A stretch of DNA of 64,000 nt from an uncultured Lentisphaerales bacterium (GCA_964417715.1 CAYQJG010000001.1:29297-93296); one strand, 5' to 3'; positions 14,398-55,123 are shown, numbered from the stretch's first letter. Numbers and translations: made by a program. Notes: a model not told the origin generated them from the letters alone.

Positions 14398-14580
14398 GCG
14401 CGTTCGTTTCACGCCGCATGGATACCACAGCGTGCCCGCAGCGTCAACCGGATGGCGATGCATAAGCGAGGCCAAGCAAGCATGCCCGTAAACATGCAAC
14501 CGATTGCCAAAGCCCCACTCGCGGCTGGACGGATTGCATCTGTCCCGCCCTCGTCCATAGCGTCGAGCCATCCACATCCC

Positions 14581-14775
14581 AACCCGCGCGTGCGGGCCGC
14601 ATCAATCACGCTGGCGCGCCGCTCGCAGACCGCGCCGCAGGCCGTCACACGGTCCGCGACGCGGAGTCTATCCATCACCTGTCGATATTATCCCGCCTCT
14701 CGGTCGCCTCGGTCCCTCCCGCCCCGTCGCGGCCCATCTGCACCTTCCGTTCACCGAATCGTGTCACACACGTTG
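14581..14775 (+). repeat. Intergenic direct repeat, copy 1 (~190 bp), left flank of the AT-rich R-M islet
   Basis: Begins AACCCGCGCGTGCGGGCC…CACGCTGGCGCGCCGCTCGCAGACC…GGCCGTCACACGGTCCGCG…CCATCACCTGT. About 85% identical to copy 2 over the first ~100 bp, with similarity continuing for ~190 bp. Confidence 0.6.
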
Positions 14776-14806: not shown

Positions 14807-15751
14807 TCACTCGCACGTTCGACTCACTTGTTGGGTGATGTACTCTGCTCTTTCCTCCAAGAGCATCATCTGCTCTGGCTTTGGTTCCTGCCCATGATTA
14901 TGTTTCTGGATGTTTGCCGGAAAGTTGAAAACCAGCGCCTCAACTACAGACCTACGGTTTTCGATCCTTCCTCCAGAATGGTAGAAATGGTCTCGCGTCA
15001 CGATGTTGAACTTTCTCCAAAGCGAATCAATGAAGGGATTGGAACGATAATCGTTGTGGTGCCAAGTCGAGAGTATGAACCGCGCCGGCGAGGTCGAGAG
15101 GAGCATAAACAGTCTCTCCTCATCCTCTTCCTTCCATCCGCTATAATAGTCAACATAGCGCCCGATGTAGGGCGGATCGCAGTAAATGATGTCGTCTTTG
15201 GTCGCTTCGGCAATGGCCGCCGCGAAATCCTCGACACTGAACGTCCATCCCGACTGGATCAGACACGCAACATCATGCACCTGATTCACGATCTTCGTCA
15301 CGTATGCCGGAGCGAACCGTTCTGGTTTCTGACAAAATGGTATATTCCATCCCCCTTTCCGGTTAAACCTCATCATCCCATTGAACCCGGCACGGGAGAG
15401 AAAGAGGAAATCCAGCGGGTCATGTGACTGGTTAAAACGATCTCTGACGGCTCGGAAGTGCTCGTACCCCTTGTCCGGTGCTTTTTCAAGCAGCGCCCCT
15501 TCACGCTCGAGGTACTCGCGTACACATCTCGGTGTGATCTCGCGGTTCTTGATTGCTTGGTAGAACCGAATGAGGTGGGGGTTGACGTCGCCCAGCAGTG
15601 CCTCGCGAAAACCAGAGTTGAAAGCGACAACTCCGGTTCCGAGGAAAGGTTCAATCCACCGGCCCTTAACGACTGGCACTAGCGCCTGAATCCAAGGCAC
15701 CAACTTCGTCTTAATGCCTTGACTCTTGATCGGGGGGGTAATCACGCGCAT
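14807..15751 (-). CDS. Dam-family (alpha-class) DNA N6-adenine methyltransferase
   Basis: Motif I-like EPFLGTGVVAFN and the catalytic DPPY motif (IIYCDPPYIGRY). It lies in a markedly AT-richer segment than the flanking DNA and overlaps the downstream nuclease gene. Confidence 0.8.
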   Translation of the reverse strand: MRVITPPIKSQGIKTKLVPWIQALVPVVKGRWIEPFLGTGVVAFNSGFREALLGDVNPHLIRFYQAIKNREITPRCVREYLEREGALLEKAPDKGYEHFRAVRDRFNQSHDPLDFLFLSRAGFNGMMRFNRKGGWNIPFCQKPERFAPAYVTKIVNQVHDVACLIQSGWTFSVEDFAAAIAEATKDDIIYCDPPYIGRYVDYYSGWKEEDEERLFMLLSTSPARFILSTWHHNDYRSNPFIDSLWRKFNIVTRDHFYHSGGRIENRRSVVEALVFNFPANIQKHNHGQEPKPEQMMLLEERAEYITQQVSRTCE

Positions 15752-16674
15752 ACTGCCTCGGCGGTTTTAGTCTTCTTCTTCGTTGTCATCGGCACAATCC
15801 TGCGTTTGTCCCCACGTTTGAAGTCGAGAAAGTCCTTGATTGACCTGATCGGAGATGCCTTGCCTCTCTTCAGACGCGAAGTGACTCCGTGGTTCATCCA
15901 GTATTCGTCAAACCACTCCTCCCCGAGTCGAGCGAAGACGCCGTTTCCGCTTAGTATGTCTTCAATCCAAGTGATCGACCCGATGTTTGCGGTGTTGCCA
16001 GAACCTTGCTTGTCGCTTGCGAGACGCCACTTCTCGCAAACAAAGAATTGGAAGTCCCGGACCACGGAAGCAATTGACCGAAGGTTGTCAACAGAAGTCA
16101 CGCTGTAACGATGAGTTGGTTCGGCAACTGGACCATCCTCCAACTCCTTGACATGGACAATTTCAGTGTCGGCCAAGTCCTTTGCCGCAGTTCTCGTGTA
16201 GATGATTCCCAGGCAGAAGTGACCGGAGTACTCCGAATATGGAAATTGGATGTTCTTAGTGGACGTTCGCTCCTTGAAGTAGGCGCCGTGGCTGCCGAGT
16301 GTGAACCCATTTACGTGGCCGGGGAAATCCGGATCGCGGTACGTAGTCTTAAGGTCAACAGCAAACTTGACGGTCTGGTTGCTCTGCTTGACAAAACTGA
16401 AGTCAGGATACCAGTTCTGGTGTTCGGCCAGGACGATCGAATACCCATTGTCCTGGGCGAACTGGAGAATCCTCGGGAAGAGGTGGATCTCAAGGATTTT
16501 GGAGACGATCTTAGTGTCGGAACTGATTGTGTAAATGTTCTTGAAGATGTCGATAAAACCCTTGACCGTCCACTGCCCGTTTTCAGCCGAAACATACCCG
16601 CCAAGTCCCCTAACGAAATCCGTCAGGGCGTCCGAAAACGCTTCCTTTTCCGTCTGTCGCTCTTTGTTGTTCAT
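15742..16674 (-). CDS. Putative Type II restriction endonuclease (PD-(D/E)XK-like), partner of the Dam-family methylase
   Basis: Same strand as the methylase, with a 10-bp overlap, and the same AT-rich composition. A candidate PD…DLK motif (WYPDFSFVKQSNQTVKFAVDLK) is present. Recognition specificity (GATC?) is not determinable from sequence alone. Confidence 0.5.
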   Translation of the reverse strand: MNNKERQTEKEAFSDALTDFVRGLGGYVSAENGQWTVKGFIDIFKNIYTISSDTKIVSKILEIHLFPRILQFAQDNGYSIVLAEHQNWYPDFSFVKQSNQTVKFAVDLKTTYRDPDFPGHVNGFTLGSHGAYFKERTSTKNIQFPYSEYSGHFCLGIIYTRTAAKDLADTEIVHVKELEDGPVAEPTHRYSVTSVDNLRSIASVVRDFQFFVCEKWRLASDKQGSGNTANIGSITWIEDILSGNGVFARLGEEWFDEYWMNHGVTSRLKRGKASPIRSIKDFLDFKRGDKRRIVPMTTKKKTKTAEAVCA

Positions 16675-17190
16675 TTGGTCCTTTTCATCTTCTCACTCAC
16701 CATTGAATAGGTGGCCAGACGCAATCCACCGGTTCGAGGGGGTTAACAGCGCCGATACACACGGTTCATTCTATTCTGAAGAACGGTACGAGGTCAAACT
16801 CCCGTGACAACAACTCACAACTTGCGTACCGGCAATAACTTACGAGTCTGCCGCCCCGACGAATGGCGCAGTTCGCGATAGTGACGTCATGCCCGGCCAG
16901 GCGGTGCGTAACGGCCGGACGCGATCCACGGGTGAAACGATATGAGTTCGACGCAAGCCACTGACCTGCATGACGTTGACTCCTATTGGAAAGTCGGAAT
17001 CTGGTGGACGACAGGCACCGCCCCCACTTCCTGCGATGGCTCCAACGGTTCCTGTCGGGGCCTTGGGTGCCTATTCCGATGGTTTAGCGGGGTCAAGCGG
17101 GAGTTCTCGGCCCAAAACTGCGAGAGTTGGGCGCGACACCTGTTCACGCGGCGCACTCGGGGCTCGCGCTCTGGATCGGACGAATCGCTC

Positions 17191-17375
17191 AACCCGCGCG
17201 TGCGGGCCTCAGCCGTCACGCTGGCGCGCCGCTCGCAGACCCGGCGCGGGCCGTCACACGGTCCGCGCCGAGGATTCCATCACCTGTTGCGTTTGCCTCG
17301 CGCGTCGTTCGCGTCGTTTCGCCCCGTCCAGTTGTGGTCCATCTGCGCCTTCAGCACCCACTCACGCAAGTACTT
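17191..17375 (+). repeat. Intergenic direct repeat, copy 2, right flank of the R-M islet, ~105 bp upstream of the next + strand gene
   Basis: Homologous to copy 1 and to copy 3 across ~185 bp. A separate 23-bp match (AAACTGCGAGAGTTG-GCGCGA) at 17117 recurs at 20795. Confidence 0.6.
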
Positions 17376-17479: not shown

Positions 17480-18658
17480 ATGTCCCCTTCATCCAGTACC
17501 GTATCGTCGCGCTTCGCGCACGTCACGCTCGTCGACCCCGCCAGCACGTTCATCGCTCCGGACGTGGACGCCGCCCGGATCGCACCCGGCAGCGTGATCC
17601 ATCCGGGCTGCCGGTTGTCGGGGGCCACGCTGTCGATCGGCCCCGGCTGCATCCTCGGCGAGGAGGGACCGCTCACCGTGCGCGACTGCCAGTTGGGCGC
17701 ACGGGTACGGCTGGGTGGCGGCTTCTTCGACCATGCCACGCTACTGGATGATGTCAGCGGCGGCAACGACGCACACGTACGTCCCGGCTGTCTGTTCGAG
17801 GAAGCCGTCACGTTCGGACACGCCGCCGGTTTCAAGCAGACGATCCTGCTGCCGTTCGTCACGACCGGCAGCCTGATCAACTTCTGCGATTGCCTGATGG
17901 CGGGCGGCACCAGCCGCCGCAACCATTCCGAGGTCGGGTCGTCCTTCGTGCACTTCAACTACACGCCTCATCAGGACAAGGCCACCGCTTCGCTGATCGG
18001 CGACGTCGCGCACGGCGTCCGGCTCGATCAGGCGCCCATCTTCCTCGGCGGTCAGGGCGGTCTCGTCGGGCCCATCCGCATCGCGTACGGAACAGTGCTC
18101 GCGGCCGGCCAGATCACCCGGCGGGACGTGACCCAGGCCGACCGGCTGATCCTGGCACCCGGCGGGTCGCCCATCGACCGGCCTCACGCGCCCGGCCGGC
18201 GCAGCGGCCTGGGCCGTGTTGTGGCCAGCAACCTGATCTACATCGGCAACCTGCTCGCTCTCGATCAGTGGTACCGTCACGTGCGCGTGCCCCGCCTGGC
18301 GGGCGCGCCCTGGCAAGCGGCCTGTTGCATGGGCGCGCTGTCCCGGCTGAGCGAAGCCTGTGAGGAACGCCTGAAGCGTCTCGACGAACTGGTTGCGTCG
18401 GTCGCCGCCCGACCCGACGCCGATGCATCGGGCAGCCGCCTGGCCGCCGGCTGGCCGGCTATCCGGCACGCCCTGGCGGATCACATCGCCGCGCGTACAC
18501 GCACCCCCGCGCCCGCGTGGGCCGTGGCCGCGCTTCAGATCATACCTGACGGCGACTACCTCCGCGGCGTCCAAAGCCTGCCGGCTGAGGTGAAGTCGGC
18601 CATCACGGCCGGACTCCAGTCGCGGGTCGACGACGTCGCGTCCCTGTGGCAGGTGTAG
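17480..18658 (+). CDS. Left-handed beta-helix (hexapeptide-repeat) protein, putative acyl/acetyltransferase (GlmU-C/LpxD-like fold)
   Basis: Multiple imperfect hexapeptide repeats (…VRLGGGFFDHATL…IFLGGQGGLVGPIRIAYGTVLAAGQ…). ATG at 17480. Confidence 0.55.
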   Translation: MSPSSSTVSSRFAHVTLVDPASTFIAPDVDAARIAPGSVIHPGCRLSGATLSIGPGCILGEEGPLTVRDCQLGARVRLGGGFFDHATLLDDVSGGNDAHVRPGCLFEEAVTFGHAAGFKQTILLPFVTTGSLINFCDCLMAGGTSRRNHSEVGSSFVHFNYTPHQDKATASLIGDVAHGVRLDQAPIFLGGQGGLVGPIRIAYGTVLAAGQITRRDVTQADRLILAPGGSPIDRPHAPGRRSGLGRVVASNLIYIGNLLALDQWYRHVRVPRLAGAPWQAACCMGALSRLSEACEERLKRLDELVASVAARPDADASGSRLAAGWPAIRHALADHIAARTRTPAPAWAVAALQIIPDGDYLRGVQSLPAEVKSAITAGLQSRVDDVASLWQV

Positions 18659-18665
18659 CCGCAGC

Positions 18666-19778
18666 CTACACGGCCAAACCGTCGACGAACCGCTGGAAGT
18701 CGCCTTCCTGCTTCTCGATCGAGCGCGCCAGCGCGAACTGGTTGCGGCACCGGCTCAGGTTCTGGTCCGGGCGGTGGATGCGGAAATACACGTCGCCCTG
18801 CAGATAGTCGGTCAGGAACCGCACGCCGCACTCAAACGTCATCAACTTGCCGCTGAAGGCCAGGTGCGCCCGTTCAGCCGGCACGAGGAAGTCGGCGGCC
18901 TCCACGTAGCCGCGCGCCAGCGCCTCGAAGATCTCGCGCCGGCTGTGAACGACCGCACTGTCGCGTTCATCCTCGGCGGCGCTGTTGGTGGCGGCACGCA
19001 CCATGTCGCCGAAATCATAGAGGGCCAGCCCGGGCATGCAGGTGTCGAGGTCGATCACGCAGATGCCCTCGCCCGTGGCCAGGTCGATCAGCACGTTGTT
19101 GATCTTGGTGTCGTTGTGTGTGACGCGCTCGGGGATCTCCTTGCGCGCGCACAGGTCCAGCAGCACACCGGCCCACCCCTCGTGCGCCAGTGCGAAATCG
19201 ATCTCGGCCCTGACCTCGCGGGCGCGGCCATGCGTGTCCTCGCGCACGGCCTGCTTCAGCGCGGCTACGCGGCGCCGGGTATCGTGGAACCCCGGAATGG
19301 TCTCGTTCAGGCGCGCGCCGGGCAGGTCCGCCAACAGGCGCTGGAACCGGGCGAAGGCCCGTGCCGCCTCATAGGCATCGGACGGCCGGTTGACGCGATC
19401 GACCGTGTGCACGCCGTCGACGTAGACGTACATCCGCCAGCACAACCCCGATTCGTCCGTATGGTAACAGCCGCCCTCGCAGGTCGGCACGAGCTGGATG
19501 GCGCGTCGCGAGGGATCCTCGGCGCATTCGCGTTCCAACCGCCGGCGCGCGTGGCGCGTGATGCCCGTGATGTTGGACATCAGCGCCGCGGGGTCGCGGA
19601 ACACGCGCGTGTTGATGTGCTGAAGCGTGAAGAACACCGTTGGCCCGCCATGGCTGGCCACGACCTTGAATGTGTCGTTGATGTGCCCCGTGCCGAACGG
19701 CTCGGCCGAACGGAAATCGGACCGCGTGTCAAAGCGGTTGAAGATGGACCGCAAATCGTAACCATGTGGAGCCGTCAT
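18666..19778 (-). CDS. APH-family phosphotransferase, probable anomeric sugar kinase (N-acetylhexosamine-1-kinase NahK / AmgK-like)
   Basis: GTGHINDTF N-terminal motif and HNDTKINNVLID / VIDLD catalytic loop of the aminoglycoside-phosphotransferase-like kinase fold. Start trimmed to the ATG preceded by a GAAAGAGGGA SD; the track start is a GTG 9 codons upstream. Confidence 0.6.
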   Translation of the reverse strand: MTAPHGYDLRSIFNRFDTRSDFRSAEPFGTGHINDTFKVVASHGGPTVFFTLQHINTRVFRDPAALMSNITGITRHARRRLERECAEDPSRRAIQLVPTCEGGCYHTDESGLCWRMYVYVDGVHTVDRVNRPSDAYEAARAFARFQRLLADLPGARLNETIPGFHDTRRRVAALKQAVREDTHGRAREVRAEIDFALAHEGWAGVLLDLCARKEIPERVTHNDTKINNVLIDLATGEGICVIDLDTCMPGLALYDFGDMVRAATNSAAEDERDSAVVHSRREIFEALARGYVEAADFLVPAERAHLAFSGKLMTFECGVRFLTDYLQGDVYFRIHRPDQNLSRCRNQFALARSIEKQEGDFQRFVDGLAV

Positions 19779-19801
19779 ACGAACACATCCCTCTTTCTCA
19801 C

Positions 19802-20725
19802 TCACGCCCAGAGCCGGGCCGGGTAGGCCCCGGCCGCCACCAGTTCGCCCAGCGCGGCCGCCACCCGCGGCCGGTCCTCACGGTACGTGACGCCGAACCA
19901 GGGGCTGTCGCTTGTCAGGACACGCACGGTGGCGCGTCCCTCCCGGACCAGTTCGTTGACGACCAGCGGAATGTACCACTCGCTCTTGGGTTCAGCGCCG
20001 TGGGCGGCCAGCCAAGCCGGAAAGCGGGACTCCAACAGCGCGAACAACGCAGGCGTGAACCCCCAGATGTTCATCGAGACGGGTTCATCGCCGGCCAGGC
20101 GCACGGGTGCGTTCGGGTCGGCCTGATTCTCGGCCCCACCCGGCACCGGCACGATCCGCGTCATCTCGGTCACCGAGGTCAGCATGCCCCCGGCATCGAC
20201 GCAACACACGCCGCGCGCGACGCTGCCATATGCGGAGAGTGTCTGCCGCAGACGATACCCGACCATCGCGAGCCGCTCCGGGCCACCGGATGCCCCGGGC
20301 GCCTCCGCGAGGAAGCCGGCCAGGCGCTGGAAGGCCTCTAACCCGTAGAAGTCATCGGCATTGATCATGGCAAACGGTTCGCGCACGATTCCTCGCGCCG
20401 CGCGCACGGCGTGCGCGGTGCCCCACGGTTTGGCCCTGTCGGCCGGCACCCGGAAGCCGCCCGGCAGGTCGTCCGCGCGCTGGAAAGCGTAATCGACGTC
20501 GATGCGCCCGGCATAGCGTCCACCGATGCGGCTGCGAAACTCATCCTCGAAATCGTGCCGGATCACGAACACGACCCGCCCGAAACCGGAGCGGATCGCG
20601 TCATAAACGGCATAGTCCATGAGCGTTTCGCCGGAAGGGCCGACCGGCTCGACCTGCTTCAGGCCGCCATACCGGCTCCCCATGCCCGCCGCCAAAACAA
20701 GAAGTGTGGGTTTCATGCACTCCAT
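19802..20725 (-). CDS. Sugar-phosphate nucleotidyltransferase (MurU/GlmU-N-like NTP-transferase)
   Basis: MKPTLLVLAAGMGSRYGGLKQ glycine-rich N-terminus of NDP-sugar pyrophosphorylases. Start trimmed (MECMKPT…); the track extends ~100 codons further into GC-rich noncoding DNA. Confidence 0.65.
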   Translation of the reverse strand: MECMKPTLLVLAAGMGSRYGGLKQVEPVGPSGETLMDYAVYDAIRSGFGRVVFVIRHDFEDEFRSRIGGRYAGRIDVDYAFQRADDLPGGFRVPADRAKPWGTAHAVRAARGIVREPFAMINADDFYGLEAFQRLAGFLAEAPGASGGPERLAMVGYRLRQTLSAYGSVARGVCCVDAGGMLTSVTEMTRIVPVPGGAENQADPNAPVRLAGDEPVSMNIWGFTPALFALLESRFPAWLAAHGAEPKSEWYIPLVVNELVREGRATVRVLTSDSPWFGVTYREDRPRVAAALGELVAAGAYPARLWA

Positions 20726-21249
20726 TCGCTGAATACGGGGCCAAACGAAAGGCCTGAATATATACCAACCGCTTCGCCGCATGCAACCCGTCGCTCCCCC
20801 CGAAACTGCGAGAGTTGCGCGCGAGGTGGGCGGAAGGCAGCCGCACGCGCGCCCGAGAGCCTGCCGGAGGTGCCGGAGCGACCGACACGCGGCGCTATCG
20901 ACCGTTCTGGGGACGGCGACGGGTAGCGGTCTCCACGACCTGCCCGGCCGTGCGTCCCAGATCGATCTGCCGCAACGCGCCCAGATTCGCGTCGCACGCA
21001 CCGGGCAGTTGCATGCCCCGGAACGCACGACTGGCCGCCGCCACGCCGCCCAGTCCGGTCACCAACCCCGCCATCGGCTCGGGTGAATTCTCGTATGGAA
21101 TCTTCCACTGGGCAGGAGTTGTTGTGCGCATGTCCGCTTGATATCAATCCACACTTGATATGGCCAAGCAGAACATTCTGTCCCCTTCAGCCCCTATTTG
21201 CAGCCGCTTCCTCAATGCGCGCTCCATACTTTCGAAAGTATGGCAACTG

Positions 21250-21470
21250 AACCGGCGCCTCCGTCCTGTCGGCGGCGCGTTCGCAGACTCCGGCGCGGGC
21301 CGCCACCACACTCACCTGTCCTCCCGGCACACCCGCGCCGCTGATTACATCCATCATCTGTTGAGGTTATCACGCGCGTCGGTCGCATCGTTCTTTCCCG
21401 TCCAGGTGCGGTCGATCCGCACCTTCCGCACGCACTCGTGCAACAGCTCTCGCAGAACGGGGACAGCGCA
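21250..21470 (+). repeat. Intergenic direct repeat, copy 3 (diverged, with a ~30-bp insertion), ~90 bp upstream of the M23 peptidase gene
   Basis: …GGCGGCGCGTTCGCAGACTCCGGCGCGGGCCGCCACCACAC…CCATCATCTGTTGAGGTTATCACGCGCGTCGGTCGCATCGTTCTTTCCCGTCCAGGTGCGGTC… aligns with copy 2 (…CCATCACCTGTTGCGTTTGCCTCGCGCGTCGTTCGCGTCGTTTCGCCCCGTCCAGTTGTGGTC…). Confidence 0.55.
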
Positions 21471-21561
21471 CGGTGCTTGACGCGACGGCGCCCATGCAGA
21501 AGAATGGGGCGCCTCACATCACCCGGCCTGAGCGCCGGGGCAAACGCATCGGCACCCGCAC

Positions 21562-22737
21562 ATGGACTTCTTCGAACCCGCCCCTCTTCGCACACCCATC
21601 CGCCCTGATCCCGCCGTCCGCCGCCGCCCGTCGCCAACCTTGGTCGTGGCGTCCCTCGCAGGACTGCTCCTTGCAGCCGGGGTCGTCTGGCTCGGCCCCT
21701 GCGGCCGGCACAAGCCGGGAACACCTGCCACACCGCCATCCGCGGCAGGCGGGACCGACTCCCCTGGCACCCCACCCCAGCCCGCGCTCCCGTCGACGCC
21801 GCTGTGCTTTGCCTTTCCCACGCCGCGCCAGAACCTGGCCGACACCAACACGCCCGGCACATTCATGCCAACCGTGTCCGGTCGCGTGGGATCGGCCCTG
21901 TTCGGCCTCGTGCGCACATCCAGCAGCGGCGGGCCCGCCTTCCACGAGGGAATTGACATCGCGCCGGTGGCGCGTGACCGGCAGGGCCAGCCGACCGACT
22001 CCGTCTTCGCCGTTGCCGAAGGAACCGTGGGCTACGTCAACCGTGTCGCCGGCAACTCCAACTACGGACTGTATGTCGTCATCGTGCACGTTGAGCCCGT
22101 TGGCGAGTTCTACACGCTCTACGCCCACCTGGCCCGCGTCGAGCCCGCCATCCGCGCGGGCACGGTGGTGCGCATGGGCGACACACTGGGTCAGATGGGA
22201 CACACGCCGGCCGGCATCCTGCCGGCAGCCCGCGGCCACCTGCACTTTGAGATCGGGCTGATCCAGAACAGCCGATTCGACCGGTGGTACCGCGCGCAGA
22301 AGCTGACGCCCGACCACGGCCTCTTCAACGGCCAAAATTTCGTCGGCATAGACCCGCAGACCATCTACCGCGAATGGAACAGGGACCACCGCTTCGCGGT
22401 GCTCGAGCACCTGCGGAGCGCGCCGCCGGCGTTCACACTGCTGGTCGCCGCGCGCCAGCCCATCAACTTCTTCACGCGCTATCCCGCGCTCTGGCAGGGC
22501 GAGGCCTTCCGCCCGGGCGTCGTGGTGCTGGACGTGGCCGAAGGCGGCGTACCGATCGCCGGGCGGATGGCCACGGATGCGGAACTCGCGGCCGCCGGCA
22601 CGCGCCGCCCGCCGTTGGTGCTGCAGGTCAGCACCGACCCGACGCTCCCCGCCCGCCGACTCGTCACACGCGGCAGAGACAACACCTGGCGTCTCTCCGC
22701 CTCCGGCACGAAATGGCTGGAGATCCTGCTCTACTGA
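21562..22737 (+). CDS. Membrane-anchored M23-family (LytM-type) metallopeptidase
   Basis: N-terminal TM helix, a Pro-rich linker, then HEGIDI…GHLHFE zinc-binding motifs of M23 peptidases. Confidence 0.75.
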   Translation: MDFFEPAPLRTPIRPDPAVRRRPSPTLVVASLAGLLLAAGVVWLGPCGRHKPGTPATPPSAAGGTDSPGTPPQPALPSTPLCFAFPTPRQNLADTNTPGTFMPTVSGRVGSALFGLVRTSSSGGPAFHEGIDIAPVARDRQGQPTDSVFAVAEGTVGYVNRVAGNSNYGLYVVIVHVEPVGEFYTLYAHLARVEPAIRAGTVVRMGDTLGQMGHTPAGILPAARGHLHFEIGLIQNSRFDRWYRAQKLTPDHGLFNGQNFVGIDPQTIYREWNRDHRFAVLEHLRSAPPAFTLLVAARQPINFFTRYPALWQGEAFRPGVVVLDVAEGGVPIAGRMATDAELAAAGTRRPPLVLQVSTDPTLPARRLVTRGRDNTWRLSASGTKWLEILLY

Positions 22738-23910: not shown

Positions 23911-25350
23911 ATGCAAACACCACCCACCGATCCTCTCGCCTCGCCCACCGCGCCGCTCTTTCCGCCCACTCCACCGCCTCTCGCACCACGCCCGGCGTCG
24001 TCCGGCCGCCTGGCCTTCGGCCTCAAACTCGTCTGCATCGGCGCGCTCGCGCTGCTGCTGCTGGCGCCGCTCAGCATGATCGGCTCACGCCTGCAGGAAC
24101 GCCTCGGGCGTCGCAACGAAGCGATCCAGAACATCACCGCAACCTGGGGCAGCGAGCAGACGGTGGTCGGTCCGATCCTGGTCGTTCCCTACCGCAGACC
24201 CGTCAAGGTCAACCGCGAACGAATCGTGGACGGCCGGCGGATGTCGGTCGACGAAACGGACTTTGTCACGTCGCGGGCCTATTTCCTGCCGTCCGAACTG
24301 GCGATCCAGGGGACGCTCAGCCCAAGTCAGCTCCACCGCGGAATCTACACCGCCACGGTCTACCGGGGCGACCTGGCCGTATCCGGCACGTTCGCGCCGC
24401 CGAACCTCAAGGAACTCAAGATCGATCCGGCGTTGGTGCAGTGGGAGGATGCGGCCGTCGCGATGGCCATCACGGACCTGCGCGGCGTGCGCGATGCCCT
24501 GACGCTGACTTGGGGAGCCAAGCCGCTGGCGCTGCTGCCGGGCTCGCGCCTGCTGGGGCTGGCGTCGACGGTGCAGGCGCGGCTGGAAGGCGAGGCGTTC
24601 GCCGAAGCGGTGCCGGTGCCCTTCACGCTCGCGCTCGCGCTGAACGGCAGCGGCGACATCCGGATGGCGCCGCTCGGCGCGCACACGCGCATCGCGCTCG
24701 AGTCGACCTGGCCGTCGCCAAGTTTCCAGGGCGCCTTCGCCCCGGCCACGCGCAGCATCGACGCGTCCGGCTTCAAGGCCGAGTGGCAGATGTCGTACTA
24801 CGGCCGCACCTACCCGCAGTCCTGGACGGACGCCGAGCCGGGAAGTGCCGTCGACGCCGGCACGCTGGCGTCCTCGGCCTGCGGCGTCAGCCTGGTGACG
24901 CCGGTCGACAGCTACCGGCTGGTGGAACGGTCCATCAAGTACGGCGTGCTGTTCGTGGTGCTGCTCTTCACCGGGTTCTTCCTGTTCGAGACGCTGGCCG
25001 GGCTGCGCATCCACCCGCTGCAGTACCTGCTGGTCGGTGCGGCGCTCTGCCTGTTTTACCTGGCGTTGCTGTCGCTCTCGGAGCTGATGTCGTTCGGCTG
25101 GGCCTACCTGGCGGGCGCGGTTGCATCCAGCGGGCTGACGATCTGCTACAGCCTGGCCGTGCTCGGAAAGTGGCGGCGCGCGGTCGTGATCGCCGCGGAA
25201 CTCGCCGCCATCTACACCTTCCTCTACACCACACTGCGCCTGCAGGACTACGCACTGGTGTTCGGCACGGCCGGGTTGTTCGTCGCCCTGGCAATCGTCA
25301 TGTACACCACCCGCCGGGTGAACTGGTACGCGCAAGGCGCGGCCAACTGA
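23911..25350 (+). CDS. creD: Cell envelope integrity inner-membrane protein CreD family
   Basis: 479 aa with an N-terminal TM helix, a large periplasmic region and C-terminal multi-TM helices. The overall architecture and length match CreD. Confidence 0.65.
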   Translation: MQTPPTDPLASPTAPLFPPTPPPLAPRPASSGRLAFGLKLVCIGALALLLLAPLSMIGSRLQERLGRRNEAIQNITATWGSEQTVVGPILVVPYRRPVKVNRERIVDGRRMSVDETDFVTSRAYFLPSELAIQGTLSPSQLHRGIYTATVYRGDLAVSGTFAPPNLKELKIDPALVQWEDAAVAMAITDLRGVRDALTLTWGAKPLALLPGSRLLGLASTVQARLEGEAFAEAVPVPFTLALALNGSGDIRMAPLGAHTRIALESTWPSPSFQGAFAPATRSIDASGFKAEWQMSYYGRTYPQSWTDAEPGSAVDAGTLASSACGVSLVTPVDSYRLVERSIKYGVLFVVLLFTGFFLFETLAGLRIHPLQYLLVGAALCLFYLALLSLSELMSFGWAYLAGAVASSGLTICYSLAVLGKWRRAVVIAAELAAIYTFLYTTLRLQDYALVFGTAGLFVALAIVMYTTRRVNWYAQGAAN

Positions 25351-40810: not shown

Positions 40811-43300
40811 TCAGTGCTCGTCGCCCGTGCCCTCGCATGGCGCGATGCGCCAGATGTCGCGCGCATATTCGGTGATCGTGCGGTCGGACGAGAACCGGCC
40901 CGACCGCGCCACGTTCATCAGCGCCTTGCGGTCCCACTGCTGCGGCGTCCGGTACAGGGCGTCCAGGTGTTCCTGCGTCGCGACATACGCGCGCAAGTCG
41001 GCCAGCAGCATGTAGTAATCGCCGAATTCCAGCAGCGACTTGATGATCGGGTCGAAGGTGCCGGGCGAAAGCAGCGAGAACACGTTCCGCCGGATCATGT
41101 CGATGGCGCGGCGGATCTCCGGATCGCCCTCGTAGATGGCGCGCGGATCATAGCTGGCACGCCGCGCGGCGACCTCCTCCACGCGCAGACCGAAGATGAA
41201 GATGTTCTCGTCGCCCACTTCCTCGTGCATCTCGACATTTGCGCCGTCCAGCGTGCCGATGGTCAGCGCGCCATTGAGCATCAGCTTCATGTTGCCCGTG
41301 CCCGAGGCCTCGGTGCCGGCCAGCGAGATCTGCTCGCTGATATTGGCCGCCGGGATGATGCGCTCGGCCAGCGACACCCGGTAGTCGGGCAGGAAGACGA
41401 CGCGGATCGTGCGGCTCACGCGCGGGTGGTTGTTCACCACATCGGCCACGCCGTGAATCAGGCGGATGATCAGCTTGGCCATCGCATAGCCCGGCGCCGC
41501 CTTGGCCGCGAAGAAGAACGTCCGCGGATGGATGTCGAGATCGGGGTTGTCGGCCAGCCGGTCGAACAGCATGATGATGTAGAGAACCAGCAGCAGCTGG
41601 CGCTTGTACTCGTGCAGCCGCTTGACCTGCACGTCGAAAATCGAATCGGCGGAGACGGGGATGCCAACCTTCGCGTGCACGTAGCCGGCCAGCAGTTGCT
41701 TGTTGGCCTGCTTCACCTCGTGGAACTGGCGCATGAACGCCGCGTCATCAGCGAAACGTTCGAGTTCCCGCAGGGCATACAGGTCGGTGATCCAGGCCGG
41801 ACCGATAGCCGACGTGATCAGATTCGAGAGACCGGGATTGGCCTTGAGGAGCCACCGGCGCTGCGTGATGCCGTTGGTCTTGTTGCTGAACTGGCTGGGC
41901 GAAAACTGGTGGAAATCGCGAAACAGCGAATTCTTGAGGATCTCGGAGTGCAGCTTGGCGACGCCGTTGACGGCACAGGAGCCGATGATGGCCAGATTGG
42001 CCATCCGCACATGCTTCTCGGCGCCCTCCTCAATGATGCTCATGCGGCGCAACCGGCCGATGTCGCCCGGCCAGGCGGCCGCCACGCGCTTCAGGAACCG
42101 GCCGTTGATCTCATAGATGATCTGCATGTGCCGCGGCAGCAGGCGTTCGAGCAGCGGCACCCCCCAGCGCTCAAGCGCCTCGGGCAGGATCGTGTGGTTG
42201 GTGTACCCCATCGAGTAGCGCGTGATCTGCCAGGCATGGTCCCAGTCCAGCTTCTCGCGGTCGACCAGCAGCCGCATCAGTTCCGGGATCGCCAGCGCCG
42301 GATGGGTCTCGTTGAGCTGGATGAAAACCTTCTCGGGAAACTTGGACCAGTCCTCGTTCTCCGCCCTGAACCGGCGCAGAATGTCCTGCACGGAACAGGC
42401 CACGAAGAAATACTGCTGGCGCAGGCGGAGTTCCTTGCCTTCGAGGACATTGTCGTTCGGGTAGAGCACCTTGGTCAGGTTCTCGGCCAGCACCTTGCTC
42501 TCCACTGCCTCGACATACGAACCCCGGTTGAAGTCGTCCAGGTCGAACTCGTCGGTGGCCTGCGCCGACCAGAGCCGCAGCGTGTTCACCACCTTCGCGC
42601 CGTAGCCGACAACCGGCAGGTCATAGGGGACGCCGATGACGGGCTTGGTGTCAACCCAGCGCCATTCCGTGTGCCCCCTGTCGGTCACCGACTCGACGCG
42701 CCCCTCGAAGTTGACCGTGCAGGCGTATTCGGGACGCTCGACTTCCCACGGGTACCCGTTCTTGAGCCAGTGGTCCGGTTCCTCGACCTGGGCGCCGTTG
42801 ACGATTAACTGCTTGAAAATGCCGTAGTCGTAGCGCAGCCCATAGCCGATGGCCGGCAGGCGGAGCGTGGACAGCGAGTCCAGGAAACAGGCCGCCAGCC
42901 GACCCAACCCGCCATTGCCCAGGCCGGCATCGCTCTCGTAATCGCGCAGTTTGTTCCAGTCCAGCCCGATCTCGGCCAGCGCCTCGCGGCAGGACTCCTC
43001 CATCTGGAGGTTGATGACGTTGTTGCCCAGCAGCCGCCCGATCAGGAACTCAAGCGAAAAATAGTACACCCGTTTGACATTCTGCCGGTGGTACGCGTTC
43101 TGCGTCGCGATCCAGCGCTCAATCAGCCGGTCGCGCACGGAGAGGGCCAGCGACTGGTAGCGATCGCGATCCGTGGACGTATACTGGTCCTTGGCCAACG
43201 TGTAGCGCAGGTGCCAGGCGAAGTCCTCGCGCAACCCGTTGGTCGTCATTTCGACGCGGCGGTCGCGCAGGTGCCGGCTCGTAGTCTTGGGCGCTTCCAT
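40811..43300 (-). CDS. glgP: Glycogen/alpha-glucan phosphorylase
   Basis: EASGTGNMKLMLNGALTIGTLDGANVE pyridoxal-phosphate site. Start trimmed to MEAPK (GAGGT SD). Confidence 0.9.
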   Translation of the reverse strand: MEAPKTTSRHLRDRRVEMTTNGLREDFAWHLRYTLAKDQYTSTDRDRYQSLALSVRDRLIERWIATQNAYHRQNVKRVYYFSLEFLIGRLLGNNVINLQMEESCREALAEIGLDWNKLRDYESDAGLGNGGLGRLAACFLDSLSTLRLPAIGYGLRYDYGIFKQLIVNGAQVEEPDHWLKNGYPWEVERPEYACTVNFEGRVESVTDRGHTEWRWVDTKPVIGVPYDLPVVGYGAKVVNTLRLWSAQATDEFDLDDFNRGSYVEAVESKVLAENLTKVLYPNDNVLEGKELRLRQQYFFVACSVQDILRRFRAENEDWSKFPEKVFIQLNETHPALAIPELMRLLVDREKLDWDHAWQITRYSMGYTNHTILPEALERWGVPLLERLLPRHMQIIYEINGRFLKRVAAAWPGDIGRLRRMSIIEEGAEKHVRMANLAIIGSCAVNGVAKLHSEILKNSLFRDFHQFSPSQFSNKTNGITQRRWLLKANPGLSNLITSAIGPAWITDLYALRELERFADDAAFMRQFHEVKQANKQLLAGYVHAKVGIPVSADSIFDVQVKRLHEYKRQLLLVLYIIMLFDRLADNPDLDIHPRTFFFAAKAAPGYAMAKLIIRLIHGVADVVNNHPRVSRTIRVVFLPDYRVSLAERIIPAANISEQISLAGTEASGTGNMKLMLNGALTIGTLDGANVEMHEEVGDENIFIFGLRVEEVAARRASYDPRAIYEGDPEIRRAIDMIRRNVFSLLSPGTFDPIIKSLLEFGDYYMLLADLRAYVATQEHLDALYRTPQQWDRKALMNVARSGRFSSDRTITEYARDIWRIAPCEGTGDEH

Positions 43301-43388
43301 GGGGTCATTACCTCGCTGCATGCAGATGTCTGGTAATCTGCCATATCGCTCCCCGTGGGTCACGCGCCAAATGCCGGCCGGCGCGGCC

Positions 43389-47372: not shown

Positions 47373-49079
47373 TCAGGTGTAGCGCAAGACTTCGTCCACC
47401 GTGGTATATCCGTCGAAGACATTGCGGATGCCGTCCTCGCGCATGGTGCGCATGCCGAGTTCACGCGCTTTCTCGCGAATGAACAGCGTAGGCTTGCGAT
47501 CATTGATCAACTGGCGGATCGGCTCGGTCAGTCGCAGGTACTCAAACAGGCCCTTGCGTCCCTTGTAGCCCGTGCCATTGCACAGCGAACAGCCGCGTCC
47601 GTAGTAGAACGACCGCCCCGCCACATCCGGACGCTTCAGCGACATCCGCGCCAGCACATCGTCGTCGGGCTCGTAGGCCTGCTTGCAGTTGGAGCAGATG
47701 GTCCGCACCAGGCGCTGACCCAGGATGGACTCGAGCGTGGAGGAGATCAGGTAGGGTGCCACCTGCATGTCAATCAGTCGGGTGACGGCGCCGGAGGAAT
47801 CGTTGGTGTGCAGGGTACTGAACACCAGGTGGCCCGTCAGCGAGGCCTGGATCGCGATTTCAGCCGACTCCAGATCGCGGATCTCACCGATCATCATCAC
47901 ATCGGGGTCCTGACGCAGGAAGGCGCGCAACACGTTGGCGAACGTGTTGCCGGTCAGGGGGTTGATCGGCACCTGGATGATGCCGTCGATGTCGTATTCG
48001 ACCGGTTCCTCGGCCGTCAGCAGTTTCTGGTCGATCGTGTTGATGCGGTTCAGACAGGCGTAGAGGCTGGTCGTCTTGCCCGAGCCGGTCGGCCCGGTGA
48101 CGATGATGATCCCGTTCGGCTTCTCGATGTCGAGTGTCAGCGCCTCGAACACGTCCTCGGGCAGGCCGATGTTCTCGATATCCAGCGACACGACGCTGCG
48201 GTCGAGCACGCGCAACACCACGCTCTCGCCAAAACGCGTCGGCAGGCAGGACACGCGCAAGTCGATGTGGCGGCCCGCGACCGTCAGCGAGATGCGGCCG
48301 TCCTGCGGCATGCGCCGCTCGGCGATGTTGAGGTTGGACATGACCTTCAGGCGCGAGATGATCGGCAGCGCCAGGCGCCGCGGCGGCGGCTGCATCTCGT
48401 AGAGCGCACCGTCCACGCGGTAGCGGATGCGGAACTCCTTCTCGAACGGCTCGAAGTGGATGTCCGACGCGCGGTCGGCGACGGCCTGGTAGAGCACCAG
48501 GCTCACGAACCGGACGACCGGGGCCGAACCGGCGGCCTGCTCGATCCCCTTCTCGTCCGCGGTCTCATCCACGGCCAGCGACGCATCCTGCTCGATGATC
48601 GTCTCGAGGTTGGACAGCATGTCATTGACGGTCTCGCTCTCGTCGCCATAGAACTGGTTGACGCGCGCGCGGACATCGACTTCACGCGCCATGACGAAGG
48701 CCACGTCGCGCGTCAGGACGAACATCAGTTCGTCCATGACATGCGGCTCGACCAGCATGGACGTGGCCAGCGTGATCGTGCCCGGCTGCATCGAGACGGG
48801 CACCACGTTGTACATGCGCGCCACGCTGGCCGGCAGGCTCCGGATGACGTCGGGGGTGATCTCGTAGGTGGTCAGATCGACCACGTCGCACCCCTGGTAG
48901 GCGGCCATCATGCCGAGCAGGTCGTCCTCGGTGGTGTAGCCGGTGTCGATGATCAGGTTGCGCAGCGGCTTGGCGGTGCGGTCGTGCTCCTCGCGGAGCT
49001 CCTGCGCCTGCGCTGCGTCCATGATCCCGTTGCTGACCGCAAGATCCAGAATGGAATCGAAATGCTCCGGGGTGCTCAT
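47373..49079 (-). CDS. GspE/PilB-family type II secretion / type IV pilus assembly ATPase (paralog 2)
   Basis: N-terminal GspE_N domain, Walker A (GPTGSGKTT), Asp and His boxes, and a C-terminal CxxC…CxxC zinc motif. Confidence 0.85.
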   Translation of the reverse strand: MSTPEHFDSILDLAVSNGIMDAAQAQELREEHDRTAKPLRNLIIDTGYTTEDDLLGMMAAYQGCDVVDLTTYEITPDVIRSLPASVARMYNVVPVSMQPGTITLATSMLVEPHVMDELMFVLTRDVAFVMAREVDVRARVNQFYGDESETVNDMLSNLETIIEQDASLAVDETADEKGIEQAAGSAPVVRFVSLVLYQAVADRASDIHFEPFEKEFRIRYRVDGALYEMQPPPRRLALPIISRLKVMSNLNIAERRMPQDGRISLTVAGRHIDLRVSCLPTRFGESVVLRVLDRSVVSLDIENIGLPEDVFEALTLDIEKPNGIIIVTGPTGSGKTTSLYACLNRINTIDQKLLTAEEPVEYDIDGIIQVPINPLTGNTFANVLRAFLRQDPDVMMIGEIRDLESAEIAIQASLTGHLVFSTLHTNDSSGAVTRLIDMQVAPYLISSTLESILGQRLVRTICSNCKQAYEPDDDVLARMSLKRPDVAGRSFYYGRGCSLCNGTGYKGRKGLFEYLRLTEPIRQLINDRKPTLFIREKARELGMRTMREDGIRNVFDGYTTVDEVLRYT

Positions 49080-49080
49080 A

Positions 49081-50172
49081 TCACTTTCCCCTTGCCTGCA
49101 GTTCTTCCTTGAGTTTCGCCACCAGCGTGTCCGGATCCTGCGACTTGGTGATCACGTCCTCGTAGTGGATGAGCCCCTTCAGGTAGAGCTCGAGCAGATG
49201 CGAGTCCAGCGTCGTCATGCCGTACTTGGAACCGGTCTGGATATCGGATGTGATCTGGAAGGTCTTGTTGTCGCGAATGCGCGCGCGAATCGCCGGCGTG
49301 GAGATCATGACCTCGAAGGCCGCCACGCGGCCCGGCTTGTCGGCCCGCGGCAGCAGCAACTGCGAGATCACCGCCACCAGGCCGACCGACAACTGCGTGC
49401 GCACCTGTTCCTGCCGGTCGGTCGAGAAGGCGTCCACGATGCGGTCGACGGTCGTGGCGGCGCCGGTCGTGTGCAGCGTGGCGAAGACAAGGTGACCTGT
49501 TTCGGCCGCCGTGATGGCGGCCTGCATCGTCTCGAGGTCGCGCATTTCGCCGACGAGAATCACGTCCGGGTCCTGGCGCAGGCCGCGGATGATCGCCTCG
49601 GCGAAGCTCGGCACGTCCACGCCGATCTCACGCTGCGTGACGATCGACTTCTTGTGGTTGTGGTAATACTCGATCGGATCCTCGATCGTCACGATATGGG
49701 CGTCGCGCTCGACGTTGATGATGTTGATCATGCTGGCCAGCGTGGTCGATTTGCCCGAACCGGTGGGGCCGGTAACGAGAATCAGGCCGCGCGGGCGGAA
49801 CAGCAGCTCCTTGACCTGGTTGGGCAGGCCGATCTGCTCCAGTGTGAGCAGTTTGGAGGGGATCAGACGCAGGACGACGCCCACGTTGCCCTTCTCCTTG
49901 AACACGCTCACGCGAAAGCGCGCCAGTTCGCCGAATCCGAAACCGAAGTCGGTGCCGCCGCGCTCGCGCACCTTCTGCTGATGCTCGGCCGATGTGATGC
50001 TCTTCATCAGCCGCTCGGTGTCATCGGGCGTGAGCGGCGCCGCGTCGAGCGGATTAAGCGCCCCGTGGATGCGCAGGATCGGCGGCACGCCCACGCGCAG
50101 ATGCAGGTCCGACGCGCCTTCGTCGAAGGCCAGCTGCAACAGATCGCTCATCTCAACGGCAGGGTTGCTCAT
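49081..50172 (-). CDS. pilT: Type IV pilus retraction ATPase PilT
   Basis: 363 aa. [21 protein letters not shown] Walker A and the PilT-specific C-terminal region. ATGA start/stop overlap with the upstream gspE-like gene. Confidence 0.88.
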
Positions 50173-51878
50173 CAGTCCGCGTCTCCCATCGTCGCCCGCA
50201 ACACTTCTTCCAGCGTGGTCATGCCGGAGGCCACCTTCAGCAAGCCGTCCTCGCGCAACGTCCGCATGCCCATTTCGCGCGCACGGGCGCGCAACTGGGT
50301 CGACGGCAGGTGGTCGAAGATCATGCGCTGGATGCTGTCATCAACCGGAAACATCTCGAAGATGCCTTTGCGCCCCTTGTAGCCGGTCAGCGAGCAGACC
50401 GGGCAGCCGCGACCGCGGAAGAGTTCGCCCTTGGCCGTCTCGCGCGCGGCGCTCCCGAGCATCTTCATCTCGCGATCCGTGACGACATGCCGCTCGCGGC
50501 AGCTGTCGCAGATGCAGCGCACCAGCCGCTGGGCCATCGCCGCCCGCAGGGCCGATGCCACCAGGAACGGCTTCACACCGATGTCCAGCAGACGGGTCAC
50601 CGCGCTGGGCGCGTCGTTCGTGTGCAGCGTGCTGAACACCAGGTGACCGGTCAGCGCGGCCTCCATGGCGATATCGGCCGTTTCAGCGTCGCGGATTTCA
50701 CCGATCATCACGATGTTGGGTGCCTGGCGCAGGATGGCGCGCAAGGCGTTCGAGAACGTGAGACCGACGTCGCGGTTGACCTGCACCTGGTTGACGCCCG
50801 TCATCTGGTATTCGACCGGGTCCTCGACGGTGATGATCTTGCGATCGGGCAGGTTGATCTGTCCGAGGCAGGCATAGAGCGTGGTCGTCTTTCCCGAGCC
50901 GGTCGGCCCCGTCACCAGCAGCACGCCGTCCGGCAGCGCGATCAGACGCTCGAAGCGCTGCTGGTCATCGGACAGGAATCCGAGCTGCGGCAGACCGAAG
51001 GAGATCGTCTGCTTCTCGAGCAGACGCATGACAATGCTCTCGCCGTGGTTGGTCGGCACGGACGACACGCGCAAATCCAGTTCGCGGTTGCGGACATTGA
51101 CCTCGATGCGGCCGTCCTGCGGCACGCGTTTCTCGGAGATCTTCATGCCCGCCATGATCTTCACGCGCTGCAGGATCGCCGCCTGCAGCCGCTTGGGCGG
51201 CGCATCCATCTCCAGCAGCACGCCGTCGATGCGGTAGCGCACGCGGAACCGCTTCTCCATGGGTTCCAGGTGGATGTCGGAGGCGCGCCGGCGGCAGGCC
51301 TCCATGATGATCATGCTGACGAGTTTGATGACCGGCGCGTCGGAATCCGTCGATTCGGTGCCGGCGAGCTTCTCGTCCAGCGTCTGCGACGACACCTCCA
51401 CCTCGCCGTCGGCCATCTGGCCGATCAACCCCTCCATGTCGGTTTCGGAGGGGTAGAGCTTGTCGATCGCCGCCGTGATCTCCTTGCGCGAGGCTGTCAC
51501 CGCCTCGATCCGGCACTTGAGCAGGTAGCCCAGGCTGTCGAGCGTGTCGTAGTTCATCGGATCGCTCAACGCCACGGTCAGGGCGTCGCCGTTCCGGTAA
51601 AGCGGCACGACGCCGTACTTGCGCACGGCGTCGGCGGTCATCAGGTCGCGCACGTTCTGGTCGATGGTGGCAGGGTCGATGTGCACCACCTCCATGCCGA
51701 ACTGCGTCGCCACGAGGCTGAGAACATCCGCCTCGGCGATCACCTTCATGTTCAACAGGATGTCGACGACCGTCTCGCCTTCCTGGCGCAACGACATCGC
51801 GGCATTGTCAACCTGTTCCTGTGTCACCAGGCCGTGTTCCTGCAGCAGCTGCAGCACATAATCGTCGTTCGAAGTCAC
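50172..51878 (-). CDS. GspE/PilB-family type II secretion / type IV pilus assembly ATPase (paralog 1)
   Basis: Same architecture as paralog 2, with the CDSC…CPVC zinc motif. 568 aa. Confidence 0.85.
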
Positions 51879-54798: not shown

Positions 54799-54802
54799 CG
54801 AC

Positions 54803-55123
54803 CTACTCCACGATCCGGGGAACCTTGAACTCATCCCCGATTCGCTCGGGGGCATTGGCCAGCACGCACTCGCGTGGCAGACTCGGGCGGGTCACGTCGT
54901 CCCGGAAGACATTGTAGACGGGTTGCCCATGCGAAGTCGGCTCGATGCCGGCCACGTCGAGACCAGCGATCTTGTCCACGTAAGACAGAATGGTCTCAAG
55001 CTGGCGCTGGAAGACCTCCTGCTCGGACGCCGTCAGCCGGATGTGCGCCAACCGCGCAACATACGCAACATCAATGTGTTCGGAAGCCAATGCCTCGCTC
55101 CTTCGTGTCGCATGGAGAAGCAC
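54803..55123 (-). CDS. gatC: Asp-tRNA(Asn)/Glu-tRNA(Gln) amidotransferase subunit C
   Basis: ~100 aa (…IDVAYVARLAHIRLTASEQE…). Its position ahead of gatA-gatB completes the gatCAB operon. Confidence 0.8.
   Translation of the reverse strand: MLLHATRRSEALASEHIDVAYVARLAHIRLTASEQEVFQRQLETILSYVDKIAGLDVAGIEPTSHGQPVYNVFRDDVTRPSLPRECVLANAPERIGDEFKVPRIVE

Follow-up and report, generated by a model that had tools for sequence, protein, structure and literature searches.

Three adjacent genes in a 64,000-nucleotide stretch of DNA from an uncultured Lentisphaerales bacterium (GCA_964417715.1 CAYQJG010000001.1:29297-93296; hereafter the window, with positions counted from its first letter) encode a kinase of the APH fold, a sugar nucleotidyltransferase (NT) and a left-handed β-helix (LbH) protein, which raises the question whether they constitute a single route of amino-sugar activation or only share a place on the chromosome. 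An initial annotation, made from the sequence alone, located the three open reading frames (ORFs) where the ORF map confirms them, and combined them into one salvage module modeled on AmgK, MurU and GlmU. The reading favored here, with a probability of roughly 0.7, is a different one: the NT and kinase genes form an operon for a putative N-acetylhexosamine (HexNAc) 1-kinase and a putative UDP-HexNAc pyrophosphorylase, next to an independent gene for a predicted stand-alone glucosamine 1-phosphate (GlcN-1-P) N-acetyltransferase. The homologies, motifs, gene order, synteny statistics and a fusion protein on which this reading is built are observed, and every substrate and activity is inferred from them.

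The layout of the locus (Table 1) provides a first part of the answer. The kinase and NT genes lie on the minus strand, with the NT gene first. The maximal ORF of the NT extends to 21028, and the start in the initial annotation was 20725; that of the kinase (18666-19805) begins with a GTG at 19805, and the gene call places the start at the ATG at 19778, which yields a protein of the same length, 370 residues, as the kinase of the closest relative. This ATG is preceded, inside the spacer between the two genes, by a purine-rich, Shine-Dalgarno-like stretch, AAGAGGGA, and the corresponding spacer in the closest relative (L168) measures 20 nt. The overlap of kinase and NT that had been described therefore exists as a 4-bp overlap for the maximal GTG ORF, but gives way to the spacer of 23 nt if translation starts at the ATG. 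The LbH gene had been said to face the other two across a promoter region; the LbH and kinase genes instead converge, their stop codons are separated by 7 nt, and no promoter lies between them. A 6-bp inverted repeat (GTGTAG / CTACAC) spans this gap, in which the promoter/terminator scan scored no terminator-like site, and the same scan returned nothing informative within the locus. Upstream of the NT-kinase operon there is one long non-coding stretch, the intergenic region that it has in common with the divergent M23 peptidase gene. No other candidate for a promoter region of the operon exists, and one sigma-70-like site was scored in this stretch, at 21477-21505 on the plus strand.

Table 1. 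Features of the locus and of the surrounding window (nucleotide positions; a dot marks a feature that belongs to neither strand)
Feature	Position	Strand	Remarks and basis
Stand-alone GlmU C-terminal-like LbH gene, 392 aa	17480..18658	+	Outside operon; ORF map, GlmU model matches
Gap between convergent LbH and kinase stop codons, 7 nt	18659..18665	.	Sequence read directly
NahK-type N-acetylhexosamine 1-kinase homologue, 370 aa	18666..19778	-	Operon gene 2; PDB 4ocj/4wh1 match, motifs
Kinase motif IDLDT	19041-19055		Aligns to IDLDT of NahK; Mg-binding IDLD motif
Kinase motif HNDTKINN	19095-19118		Catalytic loop HNDTK(L/I)NN
Kinase motif GTGHINDTF	19668-19694		Aligns to NahK GDGHINTTY
NT-to-kinase spacer, 23 nt, NT stop to kinase ATG	19779..19801	-	Sequence read directly
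NT gene, 304 aa, 3PNN / putative "GalY" family	19802..20716	-	Operon gene 1
Intergenic region upstream of NT-kinase operon, 845 bp	20717..21561	.	ORF map
M23 peptidase gene	21562-22737	divergent from NT-kinase operon	Pfam
D12-class N6-adenine methyltransferase	14807-15751	-	
EcoRV-family restriction endonuclease	15742-16674	-	
CreD-family membrane protein	23911-25350		
Glycogen phosphorylase	40811-43363		
T2SSE secretion/pilus ATPase-family ORFs	47373-49079, 49081-50172	-	Pfam
Third consecutive ORF, same length as the ORF at 47373-49079	50172-51878	-	
gatB and gatA-like amidase gene	51920-54855		

The kinase is the best anchored of the three proteins. Its APH fold, proposed from the start together with the motifs GTGHINDTF and HNDTKINN, is recovered by Pfam (E 1.4e-21), and both motifs are present (Table 1). 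Among solved structures, it aligns over its full length to NahK of Bifidobacterium longum (PDB 4ocj/4wh1; E 4.8e-73, 250 bits, residues 21-372), with 40% identity over 338 aligned residues. The next match in the PDB is an aminoglycoside phosphotransferase at E 0.03, and no choline-kinase chain occurs among the PDB matches at E<=1. Because of this distance between E 4.8e-73 and E 0.03, the kinase groups with NahK and not with the aminoglycoside kinases. Conservation extends to the catalytic HNDTK(L/I)NN loop, to IDLD and to the GxGHIN motif near the N-terminus, and the stretch RVTHNDTKINNVL of the kinase aligns to RVTHNDTKLNNIL of NahK. By sequence comparison, then, the protein is a NahK homologue, and of the solved structures compared, PDB chains that do not include AmgK, NahK is the nearest. 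This grouping supports the proposal that an anomeric, NahK-like kinase is paired here with a pyrophosphorylase for nucleoside diphosphate sugars, as in a plausible route of amino-sugar salvage. What such kinases do is known from BT4240 of Bacteroides thetaiotaomicron, a protein with 39% identity to NahK, which was shown experimentally to be a 1-kinase for N-acetylgalactosamine (GalNAc) and N-acetylglucosamine (GlcNAc): it makes HexNAc-1-phosphate (HexNAc-1-P), is needed for growth on GalNAc, and had no activity on the other monosaccharides tested (PMC11992087).

The NT carries the NTP_transferase signature of Pfam, but it is not a close relative of the enzymes with which it had been compared. 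Its best match by far is PDB 3pnn, a "conserved domain protein" of Porphyromonas gingivalis W83 (E 7.5e-104), and the similarity covers the full length including the C-terminal subdomain. Beyond 3pnn, the family profile finds only UTP-sugar-1-phosphate uridylyltransferases of the GalU type (E 2e-5 to 0.4), which are thus the next relatives in sequence, not MurU, GlmU or RmlA. An alignment of the NT profile to E. coli GlmU by hhalign reaches a probability of 2.8%, and orthology to MurU (PDB 4y7t) was not found. The earlier description of the NT as similar to MurU and to the N-terminal domain of GlmU consequently holds for the general fold only. Nor does the NT group with thymidylyltransferases; only UTP-glucose-1-phosphate uridylyltransferases follow 3PNN, and the NT gene is not part of a polysaccharide locus. 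Three motifs are invariant in the family, LAAGxGSRxGGxKQ, KPWGTAHA and INADDFYG; WGTAHA within the second is comparable to LGTGHA of E. coli GlmU, and together they fit what one would expect of a sugar-1-phosphate transferase that uses a uridine nucleotide. The family is large (>8000 members) and strongly conserved across phyla (50-82% identity), with hosts among the Kiritimatiellae, Verrucomicrobiota, Lentisphaerota, Bacteroidota and Acidobacteriota, including five Akkermansia genomes (L045, L050, L051, L060, L071). No paper that mentions the 3PNN structure was found. A functional prediction has, however, been published for GalY (Amuc_0031), an Akkermansia protein of the NTP_transferase family that probably belongs here: it was proposed to be a sugar-1-phosphate uridylyltransferase on the basis of phyletic patterns and clustering with galE in 15 genomes, with galactose 1-phosphate (Gal-1-P) as the suggested substrate (Ravcheev & Thiele 2017, PMC5583593). 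That GalY and the NT are probably of one family is suggested by the Pfam NTP_transferase assignment, the Akkermansia members and the galE clustering.

Gene neighborhoods tie the NT to the kinase well beyond this genome. In a sample of 80 species-representative NT loci, 74 of which have at least 1.2 kb of sequence downstream of the NT, a NahK-like gene lies near the NT in 22, from Verrucomicrobiota, Lentisphaerota, Acidobacteriota and Bacteroidota; they include Akkermansia, Luteolibacter, Victivallales, Opitutae and Acidobacteriaceae, as well as Bacteroidales with more divergent kinases. According to the cluster analysis, the kinase gene follows the NT gene directly and on the same strand at 20 of the 80 loci, with a median gap of 5 bp, and the two remaining cases have it 2.6 kb downstream (L037) or just upstream (L064). 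The closest relative keeps the pair, with 79% identity for the NT and 86% for the kinase, followed by argS. A GalE-type epimerase adjoins the NT at 10/80 loci and a PIG-L-like deacetylase at 6/80. The resulting hypothesis is a short route in which the NahK-type kinase would use ATP to phosphorylate free GlcNAc and/or GalNAc at O1, and the 3PNN-family NT would join the HexNAc-1-P to UTP, giving UDP-GlcNAc or UDP-GalNAc; where GalE is adjacent, in relatives, it could interconvert the two products. By such a route, N-acetylhexosamines that are freed from glycans would enter salvage or catabolism directly.

The LbH gene follows a different pattern. It is absent within 10 kb of the NT at all 80 NT loci and, reciprocally, none of the 86 loci sampled for the LbH family has the NT within 10 kb. 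In the closest relative, the LbH gene is found on another contig than the NT-kinase pair, beside a gene of the phospholipase D family (PLD). The partner that the family does have is glmM, identified by the TIGR01455 equivalog (567-600 bits, cutoff 447.55), which adjoins the LbH gene on the same strand in 57/86 loci; only about eight LbH loci with adequate flanks lack it, and a NahK-like kinase is near the LbH gene in two of the 86. This usual partner is not in the window: glmM, glmS, the GlmU N-domain and NagU/UDPGP were all searched for in the 64 kb and none was found. A three-gene operon or a divergent promoter, considered as an explanation of the locus, is ruled out by the strands, by the positions of the stop codons and by synteny (0/80, 0/86 and the closest relative), and the three-gene module as originally drawn falls with it, given that its LbH member is convergent, missing from the 80 NT loci, on a separate contig in the nearest genome and provided with glmM as a partner of its own. 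The best reading of these data is that the NT-kinase operon and the LbH gene are two functionally separate units, which are neighbors by chance.

That the third protein is a left-handed β-helix, as had been proposed, is corroborated from several directions. Pfam returned no match to it, Hexapep included. The GlmU models of NCBIfam match it over model positions 253-441 with E 8e-18, which is far below their trusted cutoffs; its family profile retrieves no PDB chains other than those of GlmU (Mycobacterium tuberculosis GlmU 256-457, E 4e-9); and hhalign aligns it to E. coli GlmU 244-435 with 93% probability. The AlphaFold2 (AF2) model shows periodic strands, with a predicted local distance difference test score (pLDDT) near 90 for residues 15-120, and its best, if weak, Foldseek matches in the PDB are the LbH domains of GlmU. 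In the hhalign alignment, R101, K119 and N160 correspond to R333, K351 and N386 of E. coli GlmU, which contact GlcN-1-P and of which R333 and K351 bind the substrate phosphate, and all three are invariant in an alignment of 14 family members. Behind the helix follows a helical C-terminal domain of ~150 aa (residues ~236-392) that is specific to the family: among 1.84 billion representatives searched there were 161 matches, all C-terminal in proteins of ~380-440 aa or in fragments, and no other architecture except a fusion to the N-terminal domain of GlmU.

This fusion is of particular weight for the function of the family. A protein of 750 aa, present in two independent assemblies (P0449 / P0510), joins a canonical GlmU N-domain to a full-length LbH family member: its N-terminal part, which is 36% identical to E. 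coli GlmU 4-336, comprises the GlmU N-domain and the first LbH coils, and its LbH part is 43% identical to the LbH protein of the window. The gene (L170, 6001-8253) lies on a 1.15-Mb contig, 22 bp upstream of glmS, in the same order as glmU-glmS of E. coli. The fusion thus provides Rosetta-stone evidence that the LbH family supplies the acetyltransferase half of UDP-GlcNAc synthesis. The LbH protein is, from its sequence and genomic context, most likely a GlcN-1-P N-acetyltransferase, which would acetylate GlcN-1-P, the product of GlmM, in the de novo synthesis of UDP-GlcNAc. Genes for a "truncated C-terminal GlmU" have been reported for the Planctomycetes-Verrucomicrobia-Chlamydiae (PVC) bacteria, together with a proposal that the UAP1-like NagU is the uridylyltransferase partner (Fong et al., 2026, preprint). 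The public names of the family are different ones: members such as P0004, P0013, P0040, P0065 and others are entered at NCBI as "UDP-N-acetylglucosamine pyrophosphorylase", and JGI uses "UDP-GlcNAc/UDP-GalNAc diphosphorylase". The name pyrophosphorylase is implausible for proteins that have no nucleotidyltransferase domain and resemble only the acetyltransferase half of GlmU, and the label is probably a propagated misannotation.

Several observations weigh against this reading of the locus as a salvage operon beside an acetyltransferase gene, and alternatives have to be set beside it. Concerning the NT, 58/80 loci have no kinase nearby, its specificity is inferred from genomic context alone, and the sole published prediction for what is probably its family names Gal-1-P instead of HexNAc-1-P as substrate. 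The NT could be a GalY-type uridylyltransferase for Gal-1-P (or glucose 1-phosphate) in a Leloir-like galactose pathway, with no role in HexNAc metabolism, and the kinase would be independent or act on another sugar. The phyletic and galE-based argument for Amuc_0031 (PMC5583593), the GalE neighbors at 10 of the 80 loci and the fact that the closest characterized sequence relatives are UDP-glucose pyrophosphorylases all agree with such a function. However, the NT has the NahK-type kinase as its commonest conserved neighbor, the 80 loci showed no galactokinase cluster, and characterized NahK-type kinases use HexNAc, with BT4240 inactive on the other sugars that were offered to it (PMC11992087), so that an exclusive role in galactose metabolism appears unlikely; an NT of broad specificity would fit both substrates. 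Concerning the LbH protein, the alignments fail to recover the catalytic histidine: hhalign pairs His363 of E. coli GlmU with Ser131, and HMMER pairs His374 of the M. tuberculosis enzyme with Asp137, an ambiguity due to a 6-residue insertion in the active-site coils for which two placements are possible; H149, H158 and D137, all invariant, lie near the position in question. Moreover, the most conserved stretch, residues 125-242, has a pLDDT below 50, and the model is unreliable there and therefore unusable for mapping the active site. The low confidence over the putative active site, the unrecovered histidine and the family-specific helical domain would suit an acyltransferase of another kind, or a non-catalytic or regulatory LbH protein. 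Such a departure from GlcN-1-P acetylation is decidedly unlikely, in view of the three invariant residues shared with GlmU, the tight synteny with glmM, the replacement of the GlmU C-domain by a family member in one lineage, in a glmU-glmS arrangement, and the lack of a nucleotidyltransferase domain that makes the public pyrophosphorylase name implausible.

The separation of the two units can be questioned as well. A metagenomic contig (L110) carries a NahK-like kinase (2-574), the LbH gene (604-1860) and glmM (1969-2637) in one direction, the only one of the 86 LbH loci at which a kinase directly abuts the LbH gene, and both units would feed GlcNAc-1-phosphate (GlcNAc-1-P) to the same uridylyltransferase, so a link between them is possible. 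Taken further, GlmU might be replaced in this PVC lineage, which is Kiritimatiellota-like, by two unlinked proteins, the LbH acetyltransferase and the 3PNN/GalY NT, the latter as an essential housekeeping GlcNAc-1-P uridylyltransferase and obligate partner of the former, with the kinase as a salvage inlet to the NT. This reading, which overlaps in part with the favored one, would agree with the conservation of the NT across phyla and its >8000 members, which fits a place in central metabolism, with the Kiritimatiellae, in which the NT has no kinase beside it (L007-L009) and an LbH-glmM pair is also present, and with the L110 contig. Furthermore, none of the 166 loci has a canonical GlmU N-domain gene within 10 kb, nor was one, or a UDPGP/NagU domain, found in the window, and monofunctional GlcNAc-1-P uridyltransferases do exist in Bacteroidetes (GlmUCc, PMC4358021). 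On the other hand, the NT and the LbH gene are never syntenic outside this window, the only fusion partner of the LbH family is the canonical GlmU N-domain and not a 3PNN-type NT, NagU has been proposed for the partner role in PVC bacteria (Fong et al., 2026, preprint), and the genome is seen here over 64 kb, so that a gene for a GlmU N-domain or NagU may lie elsewhere. A division of GlmU between these two proteins is hence a tentative and rather doubtful idea; of the split GlmU put forward in the initial annotation, the stand-alone GlmU C-terminal-like protein is retained, but there is no sign that the neighboring NT is its partner. Far less probable still is the original proposal that all three genes act as one AmgK/MurU/GlmU-like module, which would turn N-acetylmuramic acid (MurNAc) or GlcNAc into UDP-sugars, circumvent the de novo route to UDP-MurNAc and confer tolerance to fosfomycin. 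Gene orientation and synteny largely refute it, the LbH gene being convergent and its adjacency not conserved; in addition, the kinase is of the NahK type (E 5e-73) and no peptidoglycan-recycling genes were recognized in the Pfam map of the window, which leaves the analogy with MurNAc recycling and a fosfomycin bypass without specific support.

If UDP-GlcNAc synthesis is nevertheless divided between the LbH protein and the NT in this lineage, it would represent a third bacterial solution beside GlmU and the UAP1-like NagU, in which a NahK-type kinase feeds salvaged HexNAc into the very same uridylyltransferase; the orphan structure 3PNN would gain a function, and the missing step after BT4240-type kinases would be filled in gut Bacteroides and in Akkermansia.

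The surroundings of the locus consist of ordinary chromosomal genes (23911-54855), none of which is related to amino sugars, and of one conspicuous island. Just upstream of the LbH gene, the GC content falls from about 67% to 58-59% (14807-16674) over the genes for a restriction endonuclease and a methyltransferase (Table 1). The island is bracketed by direct repeats of ~168 nt (14580-14747 and 17190-17352; 79% identity, spacing 2610 nt) and looks like a restriction-modification cassette that was inserted with a long target duplication. A third, partial copy of this intergenic repeat (21324-21443, 75% identity) lies upstream of the M23 gene, within the intergenic region at 20717-21561, and a separate match of 26 nt (92% identity, 20799-20824 / 17111-17136) is shared by the intergenic regions on either side of the locus. 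The copies all have plus orientation, with none elsewhere in the 64 kb, and an Rfam scan of the whole window gave no matches. The M23 peptidase gene adjoins the NT both in the window, where it is divergent, and in a metagenome-assembled genome of Akkermansia muciniphila (L050, 1459-2604), where it lies downstream. As a candidate for a conserved NT neighbor it was dismissed: it occurs at that one locus among the 80, and the adjacency is therefore likely a coincidence.

All three genes belong to families that have already been described or predicted, and nothing in the locus is categorically new: NahK kinases are characterized, the structure of the NT family is solved and its function probably predicted in silico, and PVC GlmU C-terminal genes are reported in a preprint. 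What is added is the coupling of NT and NahK-type kinase across phyla, genomic support for the LbH family as acetyltransferases, and the probable misannotation of these proteins in databases. Both peptidoglycan and lipid A depend on UDP-GlcNAc as an essential precursor, and GlmU is regarded as a near-universal target for antibiotics. That GlmU is not universal has been shown recently, with NagU in Staphylococcus aureus and PVC bacteria and GlmUCc in Capnocytophaga. Independent genomic support for the stand-alone GlmU-C-like proteins of PVC bacteria as the acetyltransferase of the pathway comes from the conserved position beside glmM and from the GlmU N-domain fusion. The association at 22/80 loci, in turn, nominates the 3PNN/GalY family, which has a solved structure and is a functional orphan, as the pyrophosphorylase that uses the product of NahK-type kinases. 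With this candidate role, the NT would supply the step that is left open downstream of BT4240 in B. thetaiotaomicron, which would be relevant to mucin foragers such as Akkermansia.

Compared with known systems, each of the two units resembles a described arrangement in part. The LbH protein is similar to bifunctional GlmU in the C-terminal domain only (244-435) and is devoid of a uridylyltransferase domain; it keeps the residues aligned to R333, K351 and N386, the alignments do not recover His363, and it has the 6-residue insertion in the active-site coils and the ~150-aa helical domain in addition. With the "truncated C-terminal GlmU" of PVC bacteria (Fong et al., 2026, preprint) it has the match to the GlmU C-domain and the linkage to glmM in common. 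The NT family and GalY share Akkermansia members and galE clustering; for GalY the predicted substrate is Gal-1-P, whereas the gene neighborhoods described here suggest that HexNAc-1-P is one substrate at least. The role proposed for the NT is that of GlmUCc (Ccan_15070) of Capnocytophaga canimorsus, an essential, stand-alone uridyltransferase with which a glycan forager converts salvaged GlcNAc-1-P to UDP-GlcNAc, described in a study that names no kinase as the source of this GlcNAc-1-P (PMC4358021); the likeness drawn here is one of role. AmgK and MurU of Pseudomonas follow the same logic, an anomeric kinase of the APH fold and then a sugar-1-phosphate uridylyltransferase, and the general folds are common to both pairs. 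However, the MurU chain has 218 aa and the NT of the window 304 aa with an extra C-terminal subdomain, the kinase of the window is of the NahK type, and MurNAc, the substrate of AmgK/MurU, is not indicated for the pair in the window. NahK itself (LnpB; PDB 4ocj, 4wh1) is the closest counterpart of the kinase, in full-length alignment as well as in the catalytic and Mg-binding motifs, and BT4240, the O1 kinase for GalNAc and GlcNAc, is about as far from NahK (39%) as the kinase of the window (40%). The settings differ: NahK of B. longum is part of the galacto-N-biose/lacto-N-biose (GNB/LNB, lnpABCD) cluster and BT4240 of a polysaccharide utilization locus (PUL), while the kinase of the window has no GH112 phosphorylase or GalT-type transferase nearby, is not in a PUL and is surrounded by the 3PNN-type NT, the LbH gene and the M23 peptidase, with GalE adjoining only in some relatives. 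Unlike NahK and BT4240, it lies translationally downstream of a pyrophosphorylase-type NT, and the scheme of NT, kinase and, in relatives, GalE might therefore be regarded as a pyrophosphorylase-based counterpart of the bifidobacterial LnpB/LnpC/LnpD route.

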